12,324 bases of DNA from an uncultured Pseudomonadota bacterium (GCA_913020725.1 CAJWCD010000108.1:1-12324), one strand, 5' to 3'. Shown: positions 52-12,323, counted from the stretch's first letter. Numbers and translations are program-made. The notes: a model not told the origin generated them from the sequence alone.

Positions 52-627
52 TCAGCGCAACAGCAACATGCGCCGCGCCCGCGCCGTCTCCGAAGTGACC
101 AGCTGGTAGAAGTAGACCCCGCTCGACACCGTCGCGCCGCCGGCGTCCCGGCCGTCCCAGTCTACCTGGTGAGTGCCGGCCGCGTGAGTCCCCGACGCGA
201 GGGTTTGCACGCTGCGGCCGAGGACGTCGTGTACGGTGAGCAGGACCGGTGTCGATCGTGCCAGATCGAAGAGAATCCGTGTGCGTGGATTGAAGGGATT
301 GGGCACGTTGGCATGGAGCGAGGCGCCGTCAGTGGCTGGTTGCCGGTTTCCGGCAGCGCCGCGCACGCCCGTCGGAGCGGGGGCGGGCGTGCAGTCGATT
401 GGCCAGACGCGATCCTGTTCGCCAGCTGGGCGCGGGCCGTAGTGTGGCTCCTCGCAACCGAGCTCTACGGCGCCGAGATCCGGCGCCACGCCGGTAAAGC
501 GATCATTGATGCCCGGCAGCCGCTGGCCGGCGTCGACGGCACGGGAGTCGGCGTGCAGAACGAAGGACGGCGCCTGGTGATGCACACGAGGGTCGTCGGG
601 ACCGACGAAACCAGCGGCCGCGTCGTG
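52..627 (-). CDS. 5'-truncated C-terminal fragment of a secreted protein: beta-helix-associated C-terminal motif followed by a FlgD-Ig-like / sorting-type C-terminal domain
   Basis: Translation contains [36 protein letters not shown] (resembles the SPAIDAG...APDLGA.E end of right-handed beta-helix proteins) and [16 protein letters not shown]...[14 protein letters not shown]...[24 protein letters not shown]...RRMLLLR-stop (typical FlgD-Ig-type tail). The ORF-track N-terminus (702..628, [20 protein letters not shown]) is antisense of the TRAP gene and not protein-like, so the real start is missing. Confidence 0.75.
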
Positions 628-1463
628 GCGGCCACAATGTGACGTCCGCCGCCGCCGTCGGGGTCTTTGCCGTGCTGTACATGGTGGTGGCCTGTTTTGC
701 AACCCGAGAAATCCGCCAAACCCCGTGGAAGGTGGTCAAGGGGTTCATTAGTGGAGGCGACCAGTTTGGGCGTTTGCTGATCGCCCTTGGGGTGGTCGGT
801 GTGGTGCTGGGCGTGTTGTCTGGAACTGGTTTGCCCGTCAAGCTCGCCATTTTAGTGGACAGCGTGATGCAGCAGTCGTTGCTGATGGCCCTGATTGTCA
901 CCGGCTTGGCCGCCCTAGTTTTTGGCATGGGCATGCCCACTCTGCCCGCCTACCTGACGATCATTCTCATCTTGGGGCCAAGTCTCTTGAAGCTGGGGAT
1001 GCCCTTGCTGGTGGCGCACATGTTTGTGTTCTACTTTGGCGTGGCTTCGGCGATCACCCCTCCCGTGTGCATTGCCGCCTACGCCGCCGCCGCGATTGCC
1101 GGGGCGGGGCCGTTGCATACCGGATTCACCGCCTTTCGGATTGGGTTGGCGTTGTTCATCGTGCCTTTTGCCTTTGCCTACTATCCGGAATTGCTGCTGG
1201 TTGATGAGGTGGGCGGTTACGAGTTGCTTCCCCTGCTTTCGATTTGTGTACGACTCGCCCTCGCGCTCTGGTTGCTCAACAGCGCCTTCAGCCGCTACGA
1301 TGCCACCCCGCTCAAGATTCCGGAAGTCCTGCTGCGCTTTGCCCTGACCGTGCTGCTGCTGGTGATTTGGCCATCCGTGCATTGGGCTGCATTTGTGGTC
1401 GCTCTCGTGTTGATTGGCTTCAATCAGTTGCGCTTCCGGCAAGCGGTGGCTGTGACGACCTAG
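627..1463 (+). CDS. 5'-truncated TRAP transporter fused permease (4TM/12TM DctQM fusion, TAXI-type), C-terminal part only
   Basis: Very hydrophobic, with family motifs [41 protein letters not shown] and [15 protein letters not shown]. Only about 279 codons, whereas full fusions are usually over 600 aa. Plausible residues run upstream of the GTG at 639 to [12 protein letters not shown] at about 627, then turn into RNQRPRR. Confidence 0.85.
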
Positions 1464-2460: not shown

Positions 2461-3096
2461 TCAACTCGGTAGAGGAATCGCCTGTCCGCTGGCGGGAACG
2501 TCGTAGCCGCGCTGCACAGCGGGCCGTTTCGCGAGTTCTAGGTACCAGCGTTTCACATTTGGAAAGGAGTGGAGATCCGCTTGATGCCACTCAAAACGCG
2601 AAACCCACGGCCACGAGGCGATGTCCGCGATGGAATACTGCGCTCCGGCGAGGTACGCATTTTCGGCAAGCTGTCGGTCCAACACTCCGTAAAGTCGCTG
2701 GATTTCAGCGCCGAAGCGTTGCTCAGCGTAAGCACTTTTTCCCGGATTGTATTTCAGAAAATGATGCCCCTGCCCACAGATGGGGCCGAGTCCGCCCATT
2801 TGCCACATCAGCCACTCTAGTACCTTGGCGCGGGCCGCTCCGGAAGTCGGCAGCAGTTTTCCGGTTTTCTCGGCGAGGTAGATGAGGATCGCACCGGACT
2901 CCATCAGCGACAGCTCCATTTCTTGGTCATGGAGCCCGGGAATCTTGTTGTTGGGGCTGTGCTTGAGGAATTCCGGGGCAAACTGCTCGTCCTTGGAGAT
3001 GTTGACGGCATGGACGGTGTAGGGCAACTCCAGTTCTTCAAGGGCAATCGAGACCTTGCGGCCATTGGGAGTGGACCAGGTGTAGAGATCAATCAT
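2461..3096 (-). CDS. yfcG: Glutathione S-transferase, Nu-class / YfcG-like GSH-dependent disulfide-bond oxidoreductase
   Basis: 211 aa. MIDLYTWSTPNGRKVSIALEELELPY (TPN motif), QF.PEFL..SPNNKIP, ESGAILIYLAEKTGKLLP, WLMWQMGGLGP..GQ.HHF, YSIADIA.WPW, RPAVQRG. Confidence 0.9.
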   Translation of the reverse strand: MIDLYTWSTPNGRKVSIALEELELPYTVHAVNISKDEQFAPEFLKHSPNNKIPGLHDQEMELSLMESGAILIYLAEKTGKLLPTSGAARAKVLEWLMWQMGGLGPICGQGHHFLKYNPGKSAYAEQRFGAEIQRLYGVLDRQLAENAYLAGAQYSIADIASWPWVSRFEWHQADLHSFPNVKRWYLELAKRPAVQRGYDVPASGQAIPLPS

Positions 3097-3100
3097 GGGT

Positions 3101-4951
3101 TCAAGGATTGTGAAAATAGATTCGTGCCGTCATCCCGGCCCGTAGCACCAACTCTGGATTGGCAGCGCGAATGTAGACCGGAAACTGTTTAGTTTGGGCG
3201 TCTGCTTGGAGACCCACACGATCCACCTTACCCGAAAACTCCCTACCGGGGTAGCCTGGAGTGGTGAACACCACGGACTGTCCATCATGAACTTGCCCCA
3301 AGTCCTCTTCCGGAACCTGAACTTGGATTTCCACCTCGTCCAAGTTGACCAGCTCAAACAGCGGCGCTCCGGAACCAATCACCTCCCCGGTTTCCACCAG
3401 CTTGCGGGTGACAAACCCGGCTCGCTTGGCACGGATGGTGCGGTCGGCGAGAGCCTCCTTGCGGAGAGCAACCTCCTTTTCTGCAAGCTGCACCTGAAGC
3501 TTCGCGCTTTCCAGGCCAAGAGTGGCACGTTTGAGGTCTTGCTCGGAACGCTTGAGCGTGAGTTTGGCGTTCTCGAGGGCAAACTGCGCACCCGCGACAT
3601 CGGACTCTGTGCCTTTGAGCGCAAGTTCTGTATTCATGACTGCGAGTTCTGCACGTTTGAGGTCTTGCTCGGAACGCTTGAGCGCCAACCCCGCATTGGC
3701 CACCGCAAGCTCCATACGCTTGCGGTCTTGCTCCGAGCGTTTGAAGGCAATTTCCGCATTGCTGATTCCAAGTTTGGAGCGGTTGGCATCCTGCTCGGAG
3801 CGTTTGAGGGCAAGTTCGGCATTGGACACTGCGAGTCCGGAGCGCTGGAAATCCTGTTCGGAGCGCTTGAGCGTGATTTCCGCGTTGGCCACCGCAAGTT
3901 TCATGCGCTTGAGATCCTGCTCGGTACTTTTAAGGGTAAGCTGGGCGTTCGCCAAGCTGGTGTGGCCGCGGTTCTGTTCCTGCTGCGTCCGCTTCACTCC
4001 CAACCGTGCATTGTCCACGGCGTACTGTCCCCGAGAAAACTGAAGTTGGAGAGCGTCCAACTGCGACTGCGTGGACGAACCTTGATCGTAAAGCGCCTGC
4101 TCATCCTTGAGGCGGCGTTCAATATCCTTGAGGTTGGTTTCCTGATCCTTGCGGGAATTTTCAGCAATTTCCACCTGCACGGCCAGCAGGCTCAGTTGCT
4201 TTTCCTGATTTGTAAGGTTGTTGTGGCTGACCCCGATCTGTAGCTTGGCTTGCTCGACCTGCTGCTTGCGGTCCTGAAGATTGTTACGGCTGACTTCGAC
4301 TTGGAACTTGGCTTGTTCGACCTGCTGCTTGCGGTCCAGTAGGTTGTTGCGGTTGACCTCGACCTGAAGCATTGCTTGCTCTGCTTGTTGTTTGCGGTCC
4401 AGTAGGTTGTTGCGGTTGACCTCGACCTGAAGCTGAGCCTGCGCGACCTGCTGCTTGCGGTCTTTCAGGTTGTTGCGGTTGACTTCGATTTGAAGCCGGG
4501 CCAATTCCACCTGCTTTTTGCGATCCTCCACATTGTTGACGTTGACCGAAACCTGAGTGCGGGCGAGTTCAAGCTGCCGCTGCCGATCCTGAAGATTGTT
4601 GCGATTGCTCTCGACTTGCAGGGCTACGAGTTGCTTTTGCTGTTCGCGGTCCTGAAGGTTGTTCTGGTTGATCCGGACCTGAAGTTCGGCAACCTCAACC
4701 TGCTGTGCCTGCACAGTGCTCTTGAGGACGAGCAACACCTGATCTTCGGCAACGCGGTCATTCTCCTTGGCCTTGATTTCCAGTACCCGTCCGGGAACAC
4801 TGGACTGCACCCGCAGGGTGTCTGCGGGTTGGATTACTCCGGAAAGCGAAATGCCGCTGCGGAGCGTTTGGGCTTCGGCAATTGACGGGGGGCCGAGCAG
4901 GGGGAATGCCAGCAGCGTGGCAGAACTTGCAAACAGTTGTCTTGGAGTCAT
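3101..4951 (-). CDS. Efflux periplasmic adaptor (membrane fusion protein) with a very long repeat-built alpha-helical hairpin
   Basis: 616 aa. Signal-peptide-like N-terminus ending AEA|Q, first lipoyl half (VQSSVPGRVLEIKAKENDRVAEDQVLLVL), about 425 aa of coiled coil with a central LYDQGSSTQSQLD turn, second lipoyl half (TIRAKRAGFVTRKLVETGEVIGSGAPLFEL), beta-barrel (VPEEDLGQVHDGQSV...FSGKVDRVG..AD..TKQFPV...NP..VLRAGMTARI), then stop. Confidence 0.9.
   Translation of the reverse strand: MTPRQLFASSATLLAFPLLGPPSIAEAQTLRSGISLSGVIQPADTLRVQSSVPGRVLEIKAKENDRVAEDQVLLVLKSTVQAQQVEVAELQVRINQNNLQDREQQKQLVALQVESNRNNLQDRQRQLELARTQVSVNVNNVEDRKKQVELARLQIEVNRNNLKDRKQQVAQAQLQVEVNRNNLLDRKQQAEQAMLQVEVNRNNLLDRKQQVEQAKFQVEVSRNNLQDRKQQVEQAKLQIGVSHNNLTNQEKQLSLLAVQVEIAENSRKDQETNLKDIERRLKDEQALYDQGSSTQSQLDALQLQFSRGQYAVDNARLGVKRTQQEQNRGHTSLANAQLTLKSTEQDLKRMKLAVANAEITLKRSEQDFQRSGLAVSNAELALKRSEQDANRSKLGISNAEIAFKRSEQDRKRMELAVANAGLALKRSEQDLKRAELAVMNTELALKGTESDVAGAQFALENAKLTLKRSEQDLKRATLGLESAKLQVQLAEKEVALRKEALADRTIRAKRAGFVTRKLVETGEVIGSGAPLFELVNLDEVEIQVQVPEEDLGQVHDGQSVVFTTPGYPGREFSGKVDRVGLQADAQTKQFPVYIRAANPELVLRAGMTARIYFHNP
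3458..4024 (-). repeat. Intragenic 63-bp (21-aa) tandem repeat family B, about 9 copies, consensus LAVANAELALKRSEQDLKRxE (descending hairpin arm, aa 310-498)
   Basis: Units read directly: YAVDNARLGVKRTQQEQNRGH / TSLANAQLTLKSTEQDLKRMK / LAVANAEITLKRSEQDFQRSG / LAVSNAELALKRSEQDANRSK / LGISNAEIAFKRSEQDRKRME / LAVANAGLALKRSEQDLKRAE / LAVMNTELALKGTESDVAGAQ / FALENAKLTLKRSEQDLKRAT / LGLESAKLQVQLAEKEVALRK (outer units degenerate). An exact 34-bp match lies at 3525-3558 and 3651-3684 (126 bp apart). Confidence 0.93.
4139..4705 (-). repeat. Intragenic 63-bp (21-aa) tandem repeat family A, about 9 copies, consensus QQVEQAKLQVEVNRNNLxDRK (ascending hairpin arm, aa 83-271)
   Basis: Units read directly: QQVEVAELQVRINQNNLQDRE / QQKQLVALQVESNRNNLQDRQ / RQLELARTQVSVNVNNVEDRK / KQVELARLQIEVNRNNLKDRK / QQVAQAQLQVEVNRNNLLDRK / QQAEQAMLQVEVNRNNLLDRK / QQVEQAKFQVEVSRNNLQDRK / QQVEQAKLQIGVSHNNLTNQE / KQLSLLAVQVEIAENSRKDQE (last unit degenerate). 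An exact 42-bp match lies at 4329-4370 and 4392-4433 (63 bp apart). Confidence 0.93.
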
Positions 4952-4988: not shown

Positions 4989-7900
4989 TCAGGCCGCCTC
5001 TGCTGTTTCAGTCTGGACAGGCTCCGAAACGGGCTTGGGCTTGCGTTTGAAAAGGCGTCCAAACCACTCCTTGCCCCCCTCGATGAGGGAGTAGAGGGCC
5101 GGGACGACAAAGAGCGTGAGCAGCGTCGCAACGCCGAGTCCGTACATGATCGCCAGCGCCATCGACTTCCAGAACGAGGCGCTCTCTGCTCCAAAGACGA
5201 CGATGGGATCGCGGGTGAAACTGATGTCCATGCCGAGTGCCATCGGTAGCAGTCCAAGGATGGTGGTGATTGCAGTCAGCAACACGGGGCGGAAGCGCAC
5301 GGCTCCGGCGAGCACGACGGCCTCGTTGCGGTCGTAGCCCTGACGGCGGAGCGCCTGCACAAAATCGAGCATGACGATGGCGTTGTTGACGACAATCCCG
5401 GCAAGTGCGACTGTGCCAATCCCGGTCATTATGATGCCGAAAGGACGGTCATGGACGATGAGTCCAAGCAGCACGCCCATGATGGACATGAACACAGAGG
5501 TCAGCACAATTAGGGGCAGGGCAATCGAGTTGAACTGCGCGACCATGACCACGAAGATGAGGAAGACGGCAACAATCATCGACTGTCCGATGAACGCTTG
5601 CATCACCCGCTGTTCCTTGTTCTCCCCCGTGAAGCTGTAGGTGATTCCGGAAGGAAGTTCGAGCCCTGCCAGCTTTTTCTGTGCGATTTTCACCAAGACG
5701 GGGCCGGGCACCTTGAAGGCGTCTCCGGAAATGGTGATCACGCGGTTGGTCTCCACATGCCGGATGGCGCCGTAGGAGGGACCGGTGCGCACTTCGGCGA
5801 TTTCACTGAGCCTCACAAGATCGCCACTCGGAGTGTGGATGTAGAGCGAGCCGAGGTCGGTCGCAGTCTTCCGGAAGCTTTGTTCGAGTTGCACCACAAT
5901 GTCGTACTCGTCCTGGCCATCCCGGAACACAGAAACCTTTTTGCCGTTGAAGGCCGTGCGGACCGTGCTGGCGATTTCGCGGGCGCGCAGTCCCAGCCGA
6001 GCCGCCTTGTCGCGGTTGATGATCACCTTGACCTCGGGGCGGCTGCGGTCAAAATTGTCGGTCAGGTCCACCAGTCCCGGAATGTTCTTGATGCGCCGCT
6101 TGATGGCTTCGACGGTTTGCAGCATGGTGGGGTAGTCCTCGCCGCGCACCTCGATGTTCAGCGGGGCGCCCGTGGGTGGTCCCATTTGCTGTTCGCCGAG
6201 TTTGACCTCAACGCCGACCATGCCCTCCAGCTTTTTGCGGAGTTCTGTCACAACCTTGGTAGGCAGCATCACCCAGTTTTCCCAATCCGGAAACGCCAGC
6301 ACCACATGGCTCTTGTGGGTAGCGGCCCCGCCGAAGCCACGCGAACGCCCGACATTGGCGACCACGGCGTTCAGGCTGGGCTGGTAGTCCTCAAGATAGC
6401 CTTCCACTTCCTGCACATAATCGTCTGAAACGGCCAGAGTCGTTCCGGTCGGCGCCGCCATACTGACGACCACCTCTTCCGGCTCGCCCTTGGGAAAAAA
6501 CTCAATGCCCTTGCGCGGGAAAGTGTAGTTTCCATAGACAAAGAAGGTGCCGATGAAAAGCCCGATGAAGACGGCAATCGTGAGCAACCGCGCCCGCAAA
6601 ACTCCACGCAGCACTTTTTTGTAACTGCGGAGGATACGGGAGTGGTCCACGAGTTTGAGGTCGTCCGGGTCGGCGCCCTGTTGGGGCTTGACTCGCAGCA
6701 GAGTCGAGGCCAGCACGGGATTGATGAAGAGCGCGACGACGAGTGACGAGAACAAGGTGATGATCAGCGTTTGCGGCAGGTACGAGATGAACTCTCCTGC
6801 GATTCCGGGCATGAAGATGAGTGGGAAAAAAGCGGCAACCGTTGTGATGGTCGAGGTGGTCACGGGCAGGGTGATTTCCTGCACACCCAGCATGGCGGCT
6901 TCGATGCGGTTTTTTCCGGACTGCCGATGTCGGAAGATGTTCTCGACCACCACAATCGCGTTGTCCACCAACAGCCCCAGCGCAAGAATCAGGCTGAAGA
7001 GGACGACGATGTTGAGGGTGTAGCCCATGGCTTCCATCACGATCATGCTTAATAGGAAAGAAAGCGGGATCGCCGTGGCGACGAGCAGGGCGTTGGTGGC
7101 ACCCATCACCACTAGCAGCACCAACAGCACCAGGACAAAACCGCTGAGGATGTTGTTCTCCAAGTCCTTGACGATGCGCTGCACTCGTTTTCCTGCGTCC
7201 GAGAGGATCGTGAATTTGACTTCACCCTGATAACGCTGCTCCACTTGCCCCAGAATCTTCAGCACGTCATTCCGGATCGCCAACAGGTTTTCGCCGCTGC
7301 GCTTGACGACGCTCAGCGAGATGGATTCCAATCCGTCCAGTCGGGATTTGGTGGTGATTTCTTTGAAACCAAAGACGACGTTGGCCACGTCCTGCACACG
7401 CACCGGTACTTGTCCGGGGGCGGAGATGAGGGCATCGTTGATGCCCTCCGGGGTCTCGAATTCTCCGGGGACGCGGATGAGGTACTTCGTCGGCCCCATC
7501 GTGACGGTGCCGCCCGGAAGGTTGGTGTTCTCGCTGCTGATCGCGCTGGAGATTTGGTTGAGGTCGAGCTGGTAGTAGCTGAGCTTGTCCAGATTCACAT
7601 ACACGCGGATCTCGCGCTCCAGCCCACCTGCCCGCTGCACTTCGAGGATGCCCGGAATGCCCTCGATTTCCTCCTTCACGTCCTCGGCAATGTCCGTCAG
7701 TCGCAACAGGCCCATCTCGCCTGCGAGGTTGACGATCATCAGTGGCTGCTCGGAGAGGTTGATTTCTGAAATAATGAAGTCCTCCACATCATCCGGGAAG
7801 TCCGGCTTGATGGAGTCCATCACCTCCCGGACCTTGGTGCGGGCCTCGCTGATGTCGAAATCAGAGGTGAATTCGAGGGTTAGGGTGGAGGCTCCCTCCG

Positions 7901-8153
7901 CCGAGGTGGATTTGATCTCCTTGAGGTTCTTGAGGGTTTGCAGTTCCTGCTCGGCCTTGTTGGTGATCAGCGACTCCACGTCCTCCGGAGACGCACCGGG
8001 AAACGGCACCGTAACGATGAGCAGGGGGATTGTGATGTCCGGTGCGGCTTCACGGGGAATTTTGAGGTAGGAAAGCGTTCCCCAAACTCCGATGACCAGC
8101 ATGAGGATGTAAATGATGACCGGGTTACGGATCGCAAGGTGGCTTGGGGTCAC
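4989..8153 (-). CDS. RND efflux transporter permease subunit (AcrB/AcrD/AcrF family)
   Basis: 1054 aa with a GTG start. Motifs AIRNPV, P.E..PDI.IP, PGASPEDVESLIT, S.S.EG.S, AIPLS, TLNIVVLFSLILALGLLVDNAIVVVENIFRH, AAFFPL.FMPGIAGEFI, GIVVNNAIV and AGAVRFRPVLLTAITTILGLLPMA. Two-fold TM plus periplasmic loop architecture. Confidence 0.96.
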   Translation of the reverse strand: MTPSHLAIRNPVIIYILMLVIGVWGTLSYLKIPREAAPDITIPLLIVTVPFPGASPEDVESLITNKAEQELQTLKNLKEIKSTSAEGASTLTLEFTSDFDISEARTKVREVMDSIKPDFPDDVEDFIISEINLSEQPLMIVNLAGEMGLLRLTDIAEDVKEEIEGIPGILEVQRAGGLEREIRVYVNLDKLSYYQLDLNQISSAISSENTNLPGGTVTMGPTKYLIRVPGEFETPEGINDALISAPGQVPVRVQDVANVVFGFKEITTKSRLDGLESISLSVVKRSGENLLAIRNDVLKILGQVEQRYQGEVKFTILSDAGKRVQRIVKDLENNILSGFVLVLLVLLVVMGATNALLVATAIPLSFLLSMIVMEAMGYTLNIVVLFSLILALGLLVDNAIVVVENIFRHRQSGKNRIEAAMLGVQEITLPVTTSTITTVAAFFPLIFMPGIAGEFISYLPQTLIITLFSSLVVALFINPVLASTLLRVKPQQGADPDDLKLVDHSRILRSYKKVLRGVLRARLLTIAVFIGLFIGTFFVYGNYTFPRKGIEFFPKGEPEEVVVSMAAPTGTTLAVSDDYVQEVEGYLEDYQPSLNAVVANVGRSRGFGGAATHKSHVVLAFPDWENWVMLPTKVVTELRKKLEGMVGVEVKLGEQQMGPPTGAPLNIEVRGEDYPTMLQTVEAIKRRIKNIPGLVDLTDNFDRSRPEVKVIINRDKAARLGLRAREIASTVRTAFNGKKVSVFRDGQDEYDIVVQLEQSFRKTATDLGSLYIHTPSGDLVRLSEIAEVRTGPSYGAIRHVETNRVITISGDAFKVPGPVLVKIAQKKLAGLELPSGITYSFTGENKEQRVMQAFIGQSMIVAVFLIFVVMVAQFNSIALPLIVLTSVFMSIMGVLLGLIVHDRPFGIIMTGIGTVALAGIVVNNAIVMLDFVQALRRQGYDRNEAVVLAGAVRFRPVLLTAITTILGLLPMALGMDISFTRDPIVVFGAESASFWKSMALAIMYGLGVATLLTLFVVPALYSLIEGGKEWFGRLFKRKPKPVSEPVQTETAEAA

Positions 8154-8155
8154 GG

Positions 8156-8201
8156 TGGTTTTGGTTTTCAGTCTTCGGTTTCCGGTTTTCAGTCTTCGGT
8201 T
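8156..8201. repeat. Short direct repeat with 7-bp periodicity immediately upstream of the RND start
   Basis: GGTTTTCAGTCTTCGGTT at 8163-8180 and 8184-8201 (21-bp period). The minus strand reads ACCGAAG ACTGAAA ACCGGAA ACCGAAG ACTGAAA ACCAAAA. Confidence 0.8.
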
Positions 8202-8206
8202 CGGGT

Positions 8207-8353
8207 CTAGAGCATTTTCGGTTTATTTGTACTCACTTGTCATTCCCGCGCAGGCGGGAATCCAGACACACGTCCGGGGGTTCTGGATTCCGGGTCTGCG
8301 CTCCGCTGCGCCCGGAATGACGATCTTGAATCTGTGTGCAGAAAATGCTCTGG
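8207..8353. mobile_element. MITE-like element: terminal inverted repeats enclosing a REP/RPE/dRS3-like composite palindrome
   Basis: Ends are CTAGAGCATTTTC (8207-8219) and GAAAATGCTCTGG (8341-8353), a 12/13 inverted match. Inside: GTCATTCC (8239-8246)...GGAATGAC (8314-8321), ATTCCCGCGCAGGCGGGAAT (ATTCCC-N8-GGGAAT form, 8242-8261) and GGAATCCAGA (8257-8266) / TCTGGATTCC (8282-8291). No transposase is present. Confidence 0.7.
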
Positions 8354-8373
8354 CCTCCCGTCCTCATCCTCAA

Positions 8374-9495
8374 TTATGAATCGCCCTTGACGTTGACGGC
8401 TTCCTTGTCAGTGAGCTTGGTGTGGCCTTCCACAATGACCTGTTCGCCAAACTTGAGTCCGGACGTGACTTGCACTCGCTCCTCGCGGCTCACGCCGGTT
8501 TCGATGCGACGCAAGCGAGCCTTGCCGTTCTTGACGACAAAGACCACACGCCCAGTGTCGCGCTCGATGATGGCGTGTCGCGGCACGACCAATTGTTTTT
8601 TGAGAACCCCTTGGTTGATGGTGACACGGGCCAGCATGCCCGGACGCAGGCTCTCCTTGGGATTGTCCATCTCGATCTCCACCGGAAACGTGCGGTTGCG
8701 GGTGTCGGCCTCGATGCCGATGGTGCGGATTTTTCCTGAGAGGGTGCGGCCGTTTTGGGCATAAAGTTCCACCTCAACCGACTGTCCTTTCTTGAGCTTG
8801 AGGACTCCGCGTTCGGGCACGTTGATTTCGACGAGCAGTTGGCTGAGATCGAGGATTTCCACGAGCCGGTCGCCCTTGCGCACAAACTCTCCGGGCTCGG
8901 TGTCCTTGGATTTCACCTGCCCCCGGATGGGGGAGCGGACTACGGATTTCTTGAGGTTGACCTCGGCAAGCTGCTCCTGAAACTTGGCGCTGTCCCGCTG
9001 GTTGCGGCTTTGGTCCAACTGCGCTTGCGAAATCAGGTTTTTCTTGGAGAGCTTGAGGTCGCGCTTGAGATTGGTGACGGCGAGCTTGTGATTCGCACGG
9101 GCGAGATTGAGCCGCACCGTGAGTTCCTTGGTGGCGATGTTGACCAGCACTTGGCTCTTGCGCACGGTTTCGCCCTTGGAAATGTTGACGTTTTCCACTA
9201 GTCCATCCATCTGGGAACGCAGCACCACCCGTTCGTTGGGCTGAAGGTTGCCGACGTAGGTGGACTCCTGCCGGATGGACTGCGGCATCAGCTCAACGAC
9301 CCGGACGTTCGTGTTGCGCTTGGAGGTTGATTGTTTCCCGGAAGCCTCGCCCTGCTTTTGGTTCCGGGGGGTGTTTTGGTCACTGACCGCTGTGTTTGCG
9401 GAACCCTGGCCTTTGTCACATCCGGCGAGGGCCAGAGCCGTGAACAGCAACAGCAGGCTGTTCCGGAGGAAAAGAAGAAGAGGTGATTTCTGCAT
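8374..9495 (-). CDS. RND efflux periplasmic adaptor subunit (canonical lipoprotein membrane fusion protein)
   Basis: 373 aa. Lipobox LAGC, lipoyl halves (G.V..V...GE.V.K.QVL and VRSPIRGQV......PGEFVRKGD.LVEI), short hairpin with canonical R-x3-L-x6-S tip (RDLKLSKKNLIS), beta-barrel (AD..NRTFPVEI..DNP...LRPGM), and membrane-proximal domain (VVPRHAI....GRVVFVV..G.A..R.IETG......VQVTSGL..GEQVIVEG). Confidence 0.95.
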   Translation of the reverse strand: MQKSPLLLFLRNSLLLLFTALALAGCDKGQGSANTAVSDQNTPRNQKQGEASGKQSTSKRNTNVRVVELMPQSIRQESTYVGNLQPNERVVLRSQMDGLVENVNISKGETVRKSQVLVNIATKELTVRLNLARANHKLAVTNLKRDLKLSKKNLISQAQLDQSRNQRDSAKFQEQLAEVNLKKSVVRSPIRGQVKSKDTEPGEFVRKGDRLVEILDLSQLLVEINVPERGVLKLKKGQSVEVELYAQNGRTLSGKIRTIGIEADTRNRTFPVEIEMDNPKESLRPGMLARVTINQGVLKKQLVVPRHAIIERDTGRVVFVVKNGKARLRRIETGVSREERVQVTSGLKFGEQVIVEGHTKLTDKEAVNVKGDS

Positions 9496-9503
9496 AGGGT
9501 GGC

Positions 9504-11051
9504 TCAGGGTTTGGGGAGGTCATAACGTGCATAAAGGTCTCCGGTCAGCACGAGCAGTTGCAGGTTGGTTTTTTCAAACTGGACTCGCGTGAAGATTTCT
9601 TGTTGCTTGGCAAAGGCTTCCTCCTGCTGGCGTTGGGAAACCTGAAAGCTGGTGCTACGCCCAATCCGGAAGCGTTCCACTTCGTTGCGGCGCTGCTGCT
9701 CGGAAAGCTTGACGACGGAGAGTGCGGTTTGCTGCTCCTTGCGTCCCAGCCGCAACGAGCGCAGCAGCGATTGCAGGGTCATGTCCAACTCCAGTTTGCG
9801 TGAAGAGATTTGCAGTTCAAGTTGCTGCCGCTCCAGTTGCCGCTGCTGGATTTTTTCGGGGGCACTGCCGCCCAGCGGAACTGTCCACGTCAGCGAAGCT
9901 CCGAAGCCATGCAGGTCGGTTTTGGCGAAGTCTCCAAGGCCGCTGAAGAAATTCTCCCCGTAGCCCTTGAGCGTGTAGGAAAAGCCAAGGTCGAAGTCCG
10001 TCCTGTCCGCATTCAGGGCATCCACCATATCGTATTGCTTGAGCCGTAGATCGGCCTGTAGTTGGGCGAGTTGTGAATCGTTGGACTCTGCCTTCTTGAG
10101 CAAGGTGGCGCGGTCGAGCTCGGTGTTTCGGATGGCCGGGGAATCTTCCGGATAGAGTCCCACCGGAAGCTCGTTAAGACTGAGGATAGCTCGGACTTGA
10201 TCTTCCACCTTGAGGGCGTCAATACGGGCCGAGAGCAGGCTTTGGCGGTCCCGGAGCAGTTGGATTTCGGTTTCCTGCACATCCATCGTGCTGAGCATCC
10301 CAGCCTCCAGCCGTGCCTGATTGTCCCGCAGCAGTTTTTCGGAAAGCGACACCGCCTGCTTGCGAACCTCCACCGTTTCGAGAATGCCTACGAGATCCCA
10401 GTAGGTCGACCCGATTTGCTGCAAGAGGGTGGATTCGGTTTGGCGGGTGCCCCATTGCATTTTCGTGACTCCAACCTCGGCGCGGCGTTCCGAGAGCGTG
10501 TTGTACTCCGAACCGCCATCTTTGAAAAGCGGGACGCTGACGGAGGCACTCAGCGAGTTGGAATCCAGCCAGTCGCCAAACGAGCCAGCGGTGAAATCGC
10601 CGCCTTGTTTGGTGCGCTCGATGATGGCGGATTGGCTACGGGTTTCGCTATAATCCAGACCGTAATTGACCCCAGAGTCGGTGCGCTTGCTGAGTCCGGA
10701 ACCGAGCGTGATGGTATTGTTTTTTTTCCCGGTCAGGTAGCTCGAGGTAAGCGCTGCCGAGCGGGAAAAACTCGCGGAACTGGTGATCGTCCACGGGTTC
10801 CGGAGTTTGGCGACAGTGAGCGCCTGCTGGGCGGCGCCTTGAGCTTGTCGGGAGGCTTTCAGCGTTTGGCTACGCTCCAGCGCAAGTTGGAGGATCAGCG
10901 CCATCGGCACCTTGGCCATCGTGCGTCCGTCCACTTTCGTCAACTCAACCAAGGCGAGCAGTTGGGCGACTTCCGGATCGCTGGTTGAGATGGCTTGTGC
11001 CGCAGCGCAGACCGGGAAGGTCAGCAGCAGGGCGAGCAGCAGGTTTTTCAT
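9504..11051 (-). CDS. TolC-family outer membrane efflux protein
   Basis: Likely start is the ATG at 11051 (MKNLLLALLLTFPVCAAA|Q signal peptide; alternative ATG at 11081), giving about 515 aa. OEP pattern: LALERS..L, amphipathic strands (LGSGLSKRTDSG.NYGLDYS, LSASVSVPL, FGASLTWTVPLG), YWDL, ARLEAG.LS..DV and E.ERF.IG.STSFQV...Q. It ends 8 bp upstream of the adaptor start. Confidence 0.88.
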   Translation of the reverse strand: MKNLLLALLLTFPVCAAAQAISTSDPEVAQLLALVELTKVDGRTMAKVPMALILQLALERSQTLKASRQAQGAAQQALTVAKLRNPWTITSSASFSRSAALTSSYLTGKKNNTITLGSGLSKRTDSGVNYGLDYSETRSQSAIIERTKQGGDFTAGSFGDWLDSNSLSASVSVPLFKDGGSEYNTLSERRAEVGVTKMQWGTRQTESTLLQQIGSTYWDLVGILETVEVRKQAVSLSEKLLRDNQARLEAGMLSTMDVQETEIQLLRDRQSLLSARIDALKVEDQVRAILSLNELPVGLYPEDSPAIRNTELDRATLLKKAESNDSQLAQLQADLRLKQYDMVDALNADRTDFDLGFSYTLKGYGENFFSGLGDFAKTDLHGFGASLTWTVPLGGSAPEKIQQRQLERQQLELQISSRKLELDMTLQSLLRSLRLGRKEQQTALSVVKLSEQQRRNEVERFRIGRSTSFQVSQRQQEEAFAKQQEIFTRVQFEKTNLQLLVLTGDLYARYDLPKP

Positions 11052-11132
11052 TTTTTGGGTGACAGCGTGAACAAGGGTCATGCAAAATTCTAGAGGAAAT
11101 CCGGAGGGGTTGCGTCTCTGGATTGTAGGGGT

Positions 11133-11724: not shown

Positions 11725-12323
11725 AGTTCGGACAATTTCAGCGCCTGTGTCCCGATGGCTTCGGCTCCATCGGCTTCCCACTCCAACAAGACCTTCACGA
11801 TTGCTCCTTCAGATAACCTCTCCACTGCTACCACCTACAAGGTTCGGGTGACCACGGGCGTGAAGGATGCGGCGGTGGGCTACACCTTGGGCAGTCAATT
11901 TGAGACGGCCAGTGGGTTTACCACAAAAGCTTGGACCTGCAGTGGGGATCCTCTTCAGCGGACGAAGGGAAGGGAGTGGCAGTGGACTCTAACAACAATA
12001 TCTATGTGACGGGATACACCTCTGGAGGACTGGACGGGAACACCAGTGCGGGGTCTCAGGGCATCTTTCTGGTCAAGTACAATTCCTCCGGAACCAAACA
12101 GTGGACGCAGCAGTTGGGAACCTCTGCAAATGACCTTGGGTATGGAGTGACGGTGGACTCTTCAAACAATATCTATGTGACCAGATACACCGATGGAGGA
12201 CTGGACGGGAACACCAATGCGGGGGGTAGAGACCTCTTTCTGGTGAAGTACAACTCCAGTGGTGCGCGAATTCAACTCGTAAGTGCAACTCACCGTCTGG
12301 TGAAGAGAGGCAAGCTGCGTTAG
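11725..12323 (+). pseudogene. Remnant of a surface/secreted protein: partial bacterial Ig-like domain followed, via a 1-bp frameshift, by two SBBP (beta-propeller) repeats
   Basis: Frame 1 reads SSDNFSACVPMASAPSASHSNKTFTIAPSDNLSTATTYKVRVTTGVKDAAVG.TL.SQFETASGFTT (Ig-like PxxxLxxxTTYxVxVTTGVKD pattern, no N-terminus). Frame 2 gives two 57-aa units, W..Q.G.S..D.G.GV.VDS.NNIYVT.YT.GGLDGNT.AG....FLVKYNSSG. The frames join at 11935-11937, and similarity breaks down after about 12263. Confidence 0.75.
11932..12263 (+). repeat. Two-copy 171-bp tandem repeat (SBBP units)
   Basis: ATCTATGTGAC.gATACACC..TGGAGGACTGGACGGGAACACCA.TGCGGGG starts at 12000 and 12171. TCTGGT.AAGTACAA.TCC is also duplicated. 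Confidence 0.85.

Follow-up and report, generated by a model that had tools for sequence, protein, structure and literature searches.

The window, the whole 12,324-nt stretch of DNA analysed here, comes from an uncultured Pseudomonadota bacterium whose relatives our search named as SAR324 (marine), and encodes a periplasmic adaptor with a helical hairpin of 216 and 215 residues per arm. No other measured member of its SAR324 adaptor family has arms as long; within this family arm length varies six-fold, the two arms change together and the pump encoded nearby keeps a constant length. We read this protein, tentatively, as a soluble extension tube of loosely constrained length that joins TolC to a hairpin-less pump; an add-on of this kind, serving a pump whose own adaptor has no arms, is more likely than a ruler for a wide envelope.

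Anatomy and authenticity of the long adaptor

The gene and its parts were delineated as follows:

3101..4951, minus strand: long adaptor gene, 616 aa, without a membrane-proximal domain (ORF call, Pfam, AlphaFold2)
4871..4951, minus strand: probable cleavable signal peptide at aa 1-27, with an A-x-A site and a short h-region but without a lipobox
4721..4813, minus strand: lipoyl half 1, aa 47-77 (Pfam (aa 47-76), AlphaFold2)
4085..4717, minus strand: arm 1 helix, aa 79-289, with nine 21-aa repeats at aa 81-269
4025..4144, minus strand: hairpin tip, aa 270-309, with the turn at G291; best-conserved part of the adaptor family
3455..4069, minus strand: arm 2 helix, aa 295-499, with nine copies of a different 21-aa repeat at aa 312-500
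3344..3445, minus strand: lipoyl half 2, aa 503-536 (Pfam, AlphaFold2)
3113..3337, minus strand: beta-barrel, aa 539-613 (Pfam HlyD_3 at 505-606, AlphaFold2), with the C-terminus 3 aa on

The lipoyl domain, split by a helical hairpin, and the beta-barrel place the protein in the periplasmic adaptor superfamily, and the membrane-proximal domain is absent, the chain stopping 10 aa past the final barrel motif. Arm lengths were measured from anchor to anchor (V75-G291-I506) and agree with the first-pass annotation, which had put the turn glycine at aa 291 between near-equal arms, each made of about nine copies of its own 21-aa repeat. Indeed, each arm holds nine such units, the tip unit being extra; lag-21 self-identity is 0.53 in arm 1 and 0.45 in arm 2 (top values over all lags in shuffles 0.21 and 0.18, n=1000), and the repeats of the two arms are unrelated, with a best cross-arm identity of 0.16-0.19. 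AlphaFold2 (11-row alignment; mean pLDDT 82, pTM 0.35) predicts unbroken helices at 79-289 and 295-499, and the predicted arm length is 30-32 nm, whether taken from 1.485 Å per residue or scaled from EmrA, in line with the continuous antiparallel hairpin of about 30 nm proposed earlier. Antiparallel pairing of the arms in this model rests on closure of the lipoyl domain and on long structural matches: in a Foldseek search EmrA ranks first, and 512-643 columns align to the long hairpins of Rad50 and PrgA. A compact bundle formed by folding back was also considered and is not supported by the predicted monomer, whose helices are without breaks and whose inter-lipoyl span contains no prolines.

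At the N-terminus, pLDDT is <50 over aa 1-32, and the best 19-aa hydropathy of 1.38 cannot alone separate a signal from an anchor. A lipobox is absent from the window protein (P0001) and from 22/22 aligned relatives, and the N-termini of the family are variable and carry A-x-A sites, in contrast to the conserved anchor of the hairpin-less adaptor described below. Judged from these termini, the long adaptor probably has no membrane anchor and is freed into the periplasm by signal cleavage. The loss of the membrane-proximal domain and the probable loss of the anchor had not figured in the first-pass annotation, nor had the link to the hairpin-less adaptor.

Mean identity in the family is 0.79 around the turn and 0.56-0.64 in the lipoyl and barrel domains. 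The tip reads D283-L287-T294 at the site that corresponds to the R-L-S motif by what we take to be that motif's spacing; D and T are invariant in 11/11 sequences, and R-L-S itself does not occur. This motif is not universal among adaptors, according to the available part of one survey (PMC4446572).

Two stripes run along each arm: a core stripe, in which one heptad position is occupied by small residues, and a second hydrophobic one that continues through every repeat. Fourier analysis of arm hydrophobicity gives a dominant peak at 154 degrees. In coiled-coil geometry, a two-sided hydrophobic stripe fits helices packed on both sides in a barrel of ~12 helices. The second stripe is thus as expected for side-by-side helix packing and supports the idea of a tube; our literature search found no paper on two-stripe barrel geometry.

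That the repeats were expanded by an assembly artefact has next to no probability. The array is repetitive and the opposite end of the contig looks chimeric, but the full 1851 nt of the gene are matched at 100% identity by the metagenome contig L141, contigs from 4 runs show no joint within it (2/4 cover every bin, with no single piece spanning the gene), DNA identity between repeat units is 84% at most, and congeners of the window's genus carry arms of 174/173 and 195/194. Together these observations contradict the expansion by misassembly that the first-pass annotation had listed among the outcomes that would refute it. A gap in contig L142 is a scaffold 'NN'. The gene is, furthermore, under purifying selection: in a comparison with the 174/173 ortholog, each of the six blocks, repeats and cores alike, gives a dN/dS of ~0.1-0.2, and 11/13 variants are synonymous. 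Low-depth contigs assembled from RNA libraries match portions of the gene in 4/4 runs, which is not proof of transcription.

A family with matched arms

The family profile matched 26/88 genomes of the phylum, all within f1, the family to which the window itself belongs. The arms form a ladder of 34/33, 48/47, 62/61, 69/68, 76/75, 83/82, 90/89, 111/110, 132/131, 153/152, 174/173, 195/194 and 216/215 residues. Arm 1 equals arm 2 plus one in 83/93 distinct hairpins (shuffled mean 15, maximum 28 in 10,000), kin among these not being independent, and the heptad phase of the two arm lengths is kept in 92/93 and 93/93 hairpins, many of them from close kin. Matching is not strict, as 10/93 hairpins are mismatched (e.g., 90/82 and 195/173); these look like intermediates, possibly with some assembly errors among them. 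The first arm anchors did not work for G011 and MFP1, which were measured separately, and 3/80 metagenome loci were unmeasurable.

A tree of the non-repeat segments, from which the G006_C61 sequence, P0026 and duplicates were left out, places repeated length changes inside three genera, and in the close contrasts read off it both arms change equally in 7/8. Length also varies at short range: alleles of near-identical sequence, with arms of 76-90 residues, differ by 1-3 heptads. Because the repeats of the two arms differ in sequence, matched growth requires two separate events, and we regard it as the strongest evidence that the arms pair along their entire length.

Length is tied to domain composition. 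The 5 genome-derived members with a membrane-proximal domain all have arms of 48/47, and those without it range from 34 to 216. The association is not absolute, as P0129 keeps the domain and has a span of ~196. The proteins of 1079-3080 aa and of 932-2660 aa that were searched included no fused or longer family form, which is weak evidence. One genome (G006) holds an extra paralog on contig C61 (L033:9752-11086), with arms of 139/180 and an end just past lipoyl half 2; it lies near the contig end and is possibly a pseudogene.

Genomic context and candidate partner

The genes around the long adaptor include those of a standard pump:

2461..3096, minus strand: gene of a glutathione S-transferase, with its start 4 nt downstream; likewise placed in the loci of two genera
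4989..8153, minus strand: RND1 transporter, 1054 aa, 37 nt upstream of the long adaptor gene
8374..9495, minus strand: MFP1, an ordinary lipoprotein adaptor of 373 aa with arms of 34/33 and a membrane-proximal domain; internal length control
9504..11078, minus strand: TolC-family channel, the only OEP gene found in the window's assembly; start codon approximate

MFP1 arms are 34/33 in 9/9 loci and the TolC core is 446-455 aa in 11/11, so that the rigid pump sees the same gap throughout, be the long-family arms anywhere from 34 to 216 residues or the protein missing altogether. A genome-wide wide periplasm in the SAR324 hosts is therefore unlikely. TolA-like lengths, compared through tol-pal orthologs, are 330/330 at arms of 90/132 and 296/299 at arms of 216/195, a weak control given the flexible linker of these proteins; in G019 (arm 132) the TolA-like protein exceeds its counterparts in three g12 relatives by ~35 aa. 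Neither RND1 nor RND2, the second RND transporter introduced below, passed a specific NCBIfam cut-off.

Several features of the stretch stand apart from the pump genes. The MFP1-RND1 intergenic region (8154-8373) contains a short direct repeat and a REP-like palindrome with 7 blastn hits in the genome, including itself. The GC content of positions 1-650 is 0.67-0.72, the genome mean being 0.567 and a value of 0.69 being attained in 0.03% of 500-bp windows, and a FlgD-Ig-tailed ORF (52-702, minus strand) abuts a DctM gene without a start, so this contig end is probably chimeric. At the other contig end, a short ORF (11931-12323, plus strand) carries SBBP beta-propeller repeats.

The long adaptor gene lies directly behind RND1 in two genera. 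Across the family, RND1 is not its constant companion, since it is lost in genus g12 (ortholog in 1/10 genomes, with MFP1 gone from the locus) and distant in genus g2, where the long adaptor gene sits behind an FAD oxidase and far from the pump. In g12, TolC directly precedes the long adaptor gene in 7/9 loci examined. One TolC gene was found in each of G000 (the window's own assembly), G013, G020 and G016, and the hairpin-bearing second pumps of G015 and G021 bring their own OEP gene. The long adaptor is intact in G035 (86% complete), whose locus is without TolC and in whose genome no OEP was found. TolC is deleted between msrB and the long adaptor in L051:4752-6644 (G035), L184 and L166:1-195, all from one species, and a 25-aa TolC fragment in L166 suggests that the loss is recent.

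A candidate partner is the second RND system, RND2, whose adaptor has a transmembrane anchor and a membrane-proximal domain but no more than a short loop joining its two lipoyl halves (16 sequences); its model has no predicted hairpin and matches BesA best. These hairpin-less adaptors are conserved in SAR324 (e.g., L080:2738-3784 in G001, L076:3156-4316 in G019, and 14 more) and occur in 30/45 f1 genomes. Of the 45, 24 carry both adaptors and 13 neither, with the long family alone in 2 and the hairpin-less adaptor alone in 6; in genus g3, G021 has both and the other 8/9 genomes neither. Three of the hairpin-less-only genomes (G002, G029, G062) are incomplete at the relevant place or overall, and genuine exceptions are G008, assembled as one contig, G017 and G018. 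In these last three (L133, L134, L135) MFP1 appears to have a plain signal peptide instead of the window's lipobox and could be a soluble hairpin donor, the long family being absent there. In G006 and G016 the gene order is hairpin-less adaptor, RND2, family member; these family members, paralogs of the form in the window, retain a membrane-proximal domain. Neither RND2 nor the hairpin-less adaptor was found in G000; both congeners have them. The ferrochelatase and kinase genes that adjoin them are likewise missing from that assembly, and the start of contig C66 coincides with the end of this block in G002; these observations make an incomplete assembly the likely, if unproven, reason for the absent partner genes.

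Under the extension-tube reading, this second SAR324 adaptor, having no membrane-proximal domain and probably being set free in the periplasm, would likely assemble as a helical, perhaps hexameric, tube, the conserved tip of which would dock on TolC and the base of which would sit on the hairpin-less adaptor and RND2. Repeat slippage would add or remove heptads in one arm, and a matching change in the other would then be favoured, since the lipoyl domain closes only when the two halves pair; length would be only loosely constrained because the long adaptor is an add-on and is not seated at a fixed height. The matched arms, the dN/dS values, the two stripes, the conserved tip, the co-occurrence with the hairpin-less adaptor, the gene order in G006 and G016 and the TolC adjacency in g12 all count for this reading. 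Counting against it are the partner genes absent from G000, the exceptions G008, G017 and G018, G035 with its lack of TolC, the shared descent of four related genera, which accounts for much of the co-occurrence, the retention of the membrane-proximal domain by the paralogs in the RND2 operons, and the ten mismatched hairpins. The 32-nm arm, moreover, exceeds the modelled periplasmic spans of 17-22.5 nm (PMC4158417) although the same cell has a standard-length pump, so the long forms would require either local widening of the periplasm or a connection that is tilted and non-coaxial. More doubtful is a fully specified four-part RND pump with a split adaptor: an anchored BesA-like adaptor would hold the transporter, and on top of it the separate soluble adaptor would form a telescoping tube of 12 helices, 5 to 32 nm long, that extends to TolC through locally swollen periplasm or membrane protrusions. 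Our literature search found no precedent for one adaptor stacking on another.

The first-pass annotation had proposed an extension tube or a molecular ruler for a wide periplasm, and its two halves fare differently: the tube agrees with the second stripe and its peak at 154 degrees, and the ruler conflicts with the constancy of MFP1 and TolC next to arms of 34-216 and with alleles that differ by 1-3 heptads. A ruler or extension tube of the RND1-TolC pump itself, in an unusually wide periplasm or across an extra envelope layer, is consequently improbable; the position directly behind RND1, the tube-like stripes and the longer TolA-like protein of G019 point towards it, but TolA-like lengths do not scale with the arms across genera (weak control), the long adaptor is kept where RND1 is lost or far away, and eight g3 genomes have RND1-type or RND2-type pumps and no long adaptor. 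We give similarly little credence to an EmrA-like arrangement, with an uncleaved N-terminal anchor and a hairpin reaching across the periplasm from an MFS or ABC transporter whose gene lies elsewhere. The three-domain layout is that of EmrA, the top Foldseek match, and EmrA-type hairpins, 118-168 aa long (PMC4158417), are bracketed by the arms most often seen in the family (62-90). Against this, the N-termini are variable with A-x-A sites, no match to EmrB exceeds the TIGR00711 cut-off in 5/5 genomes, no MFS or ABC exporter occurs among the 69 neighbours scanned, and one gap cannot fit arms of both 34 and 216. MacB-type domains are present in 5/5 genomes, none of them tied to the long adaptor gene.

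The main rival to the extension tube is a long adaptor with one end free, which would dock on TolC or on the hairpin-less adaptor and serve there as a cap, tether, collector or gate-opener, its length drifting almost neutrally through repeat slippage and compensation. This is unlikely, if less so than a ruler: the repeated length changes in three genera, the 76-90-residue alleles among near-identical sequences and the contrast between uniform 48/47 arms in members with the membrane-proximal domain (n=5) and 34 to 216 in those without all favour it, as do binary adaptor-TolC complexes, described in the available part of a review (PMC13328181), but conservation persists in the barrel and lipoyl domains, the hairpin-less adaptor co-occurs tightly with the family, and P0129 couples a membrane-proximal domain with a long span. 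Least probable among the functional readings is an exported or surface-exposed rod of variable length that no longer takes part in efflux. Its length exceeds a standard periplasm, the gene survives TolC loss in G035, and variation in the number of repeat units is typical of surface stalks; yet the tip is the best-conserved part, there is no adhesin-like domain, and the linkage to TolC is long-standing.

Comparison with known adaptors

The distance from transporter to TolC is usually taken to dictate how long an adaptor is, and a six-fold range beside a constant pump provides a natural series for asking what fixes pump length. Should the long form be a sealed tube, it would constitute a modular protein nanotube growing by ~3 nm per repeat pair, and unusual envelope regions would be predicted in an abundant uncultured marine group. 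Adaptor hairpins vary by heptad insertion, as stated in the available part of PMC4446572. In our survey of inter-lipoyl spans, 127 of 149 top-ranked representatives were measurable (22/149 were not); none reached 431 and one reached 397; similarly long adaptors exist in other lineages. Other very long adaptors include forms with YbhG-like repeats as well as P0148 and P0239, which have spans near 390-400 aa (P0239 ~390) and differ in an extra domain past the barrel and in 3 and 16 prolines within the span, against none in the window protein. The Atlas contains clusters of long adaptors of 654-716 aa, one of 669 aa, and length alone is not unique to the window protein. Seven further proteins of 842-921 aa (P0134, P0139, P0146, P0156, P0157, P0158, P0248) consist of two long-hairpin adaptors fused end to end and are possible natural two-adaptor units. 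In the literature outside subscription papers, we found nothing on a long SAR324 adaptor family or on adaptors of such length, no characterisation of other very long adaptors, and no evident imaging of a SAR324 envelope.

The long adaptor is a member of the adaptor superfamily, yet it lacks defining features of canonical RND, EmrA and HlyD adaptors. With the AcrA/MexA/MacA type it shares the TolC-adaptor-RND operon and a score above the TIGR01730 cut-off (106.5 vs 94.9 bits), and long-family relatives with the fourth domain also sit behind an RND gene; it differs in the lack of a membrane-proximal domain and a lipobox, in a hairpin 5-7 times their 47-67 Å, and in its D-L-T tip. Encoding with an RND transporter and TolC holds in the window and does not hold in genera g2 and g12. 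HlyD type I is more distant, with 43 bits against a TIGR01843 cut-off of 209 and no ABC exporter among the neighbours. EmrA of Aquifex aeolicus (PDB 4TKO; PMC4158417) consists, like the long adaptor, only of a barrel, a lipoyl domain and a long hairpin, without a membrane-proximal domain, and a conserved long barrel loop is a feature of EmrA-type adaptors (PMC4158417). Its hairpin of 168 aa and 127 Å (12.7 nm) was called exceptionally long (PMC4158417); that of the window protein is ~2.5 times longer, which puts it far past the adaptors solved so far, and the first-pass annotation had likewise set EmrA types well short of it (the window's other adaptor has 34/33); it has tandem 21-aa repeats, no clear anchor, an RND instead of an MFS context (no EmrB-type transporter in 5 genomes or among the neighbours) and a score far under the TIGR00998 cut-off (48 vs 391 bits).

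Two-adaptor RND pumps are described in the parts of two reviews available to us (PMC4338810; PMC13328181), and TriABC-OpmH of Pseudomonas aeruginosa, as presented there, resembles the proposed SAR324 arrangement in that one RND pump uses two adaptors in non-equivalent roles. In line with this, two different adaptor genes accompany one RND gene in the window, G006 and G016. The SAR324 pair differs from the Pseudomonas pair in having lost complementary domains and in the variable length of one of the two. TriA and TriB are both full adaptors. The proposed partner is closest to BesABC of Borrelia burgdorferi (PDB 4KKS/4KKT/4KKU; PMC3807786), being hairpin-less like BesA. Such hairpin-less adaptors are named as the main challenge to the tip-to-tip model in the available part of PMC4446572. 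No hairpin donor was found in Borrelia, and an additional factor was not excluded by the authors (PMC3807786); in SAR324, by contrast, a candidate hairpin donor co-occurs, sometimes in the same operon. A co-occurring adaptor with complementary domains makes hairpin supply in trans testable with the short members (34/33), and if the extension-tube reading is true, the long family would be the hairpin-supplying factor left open by the work on BesA.
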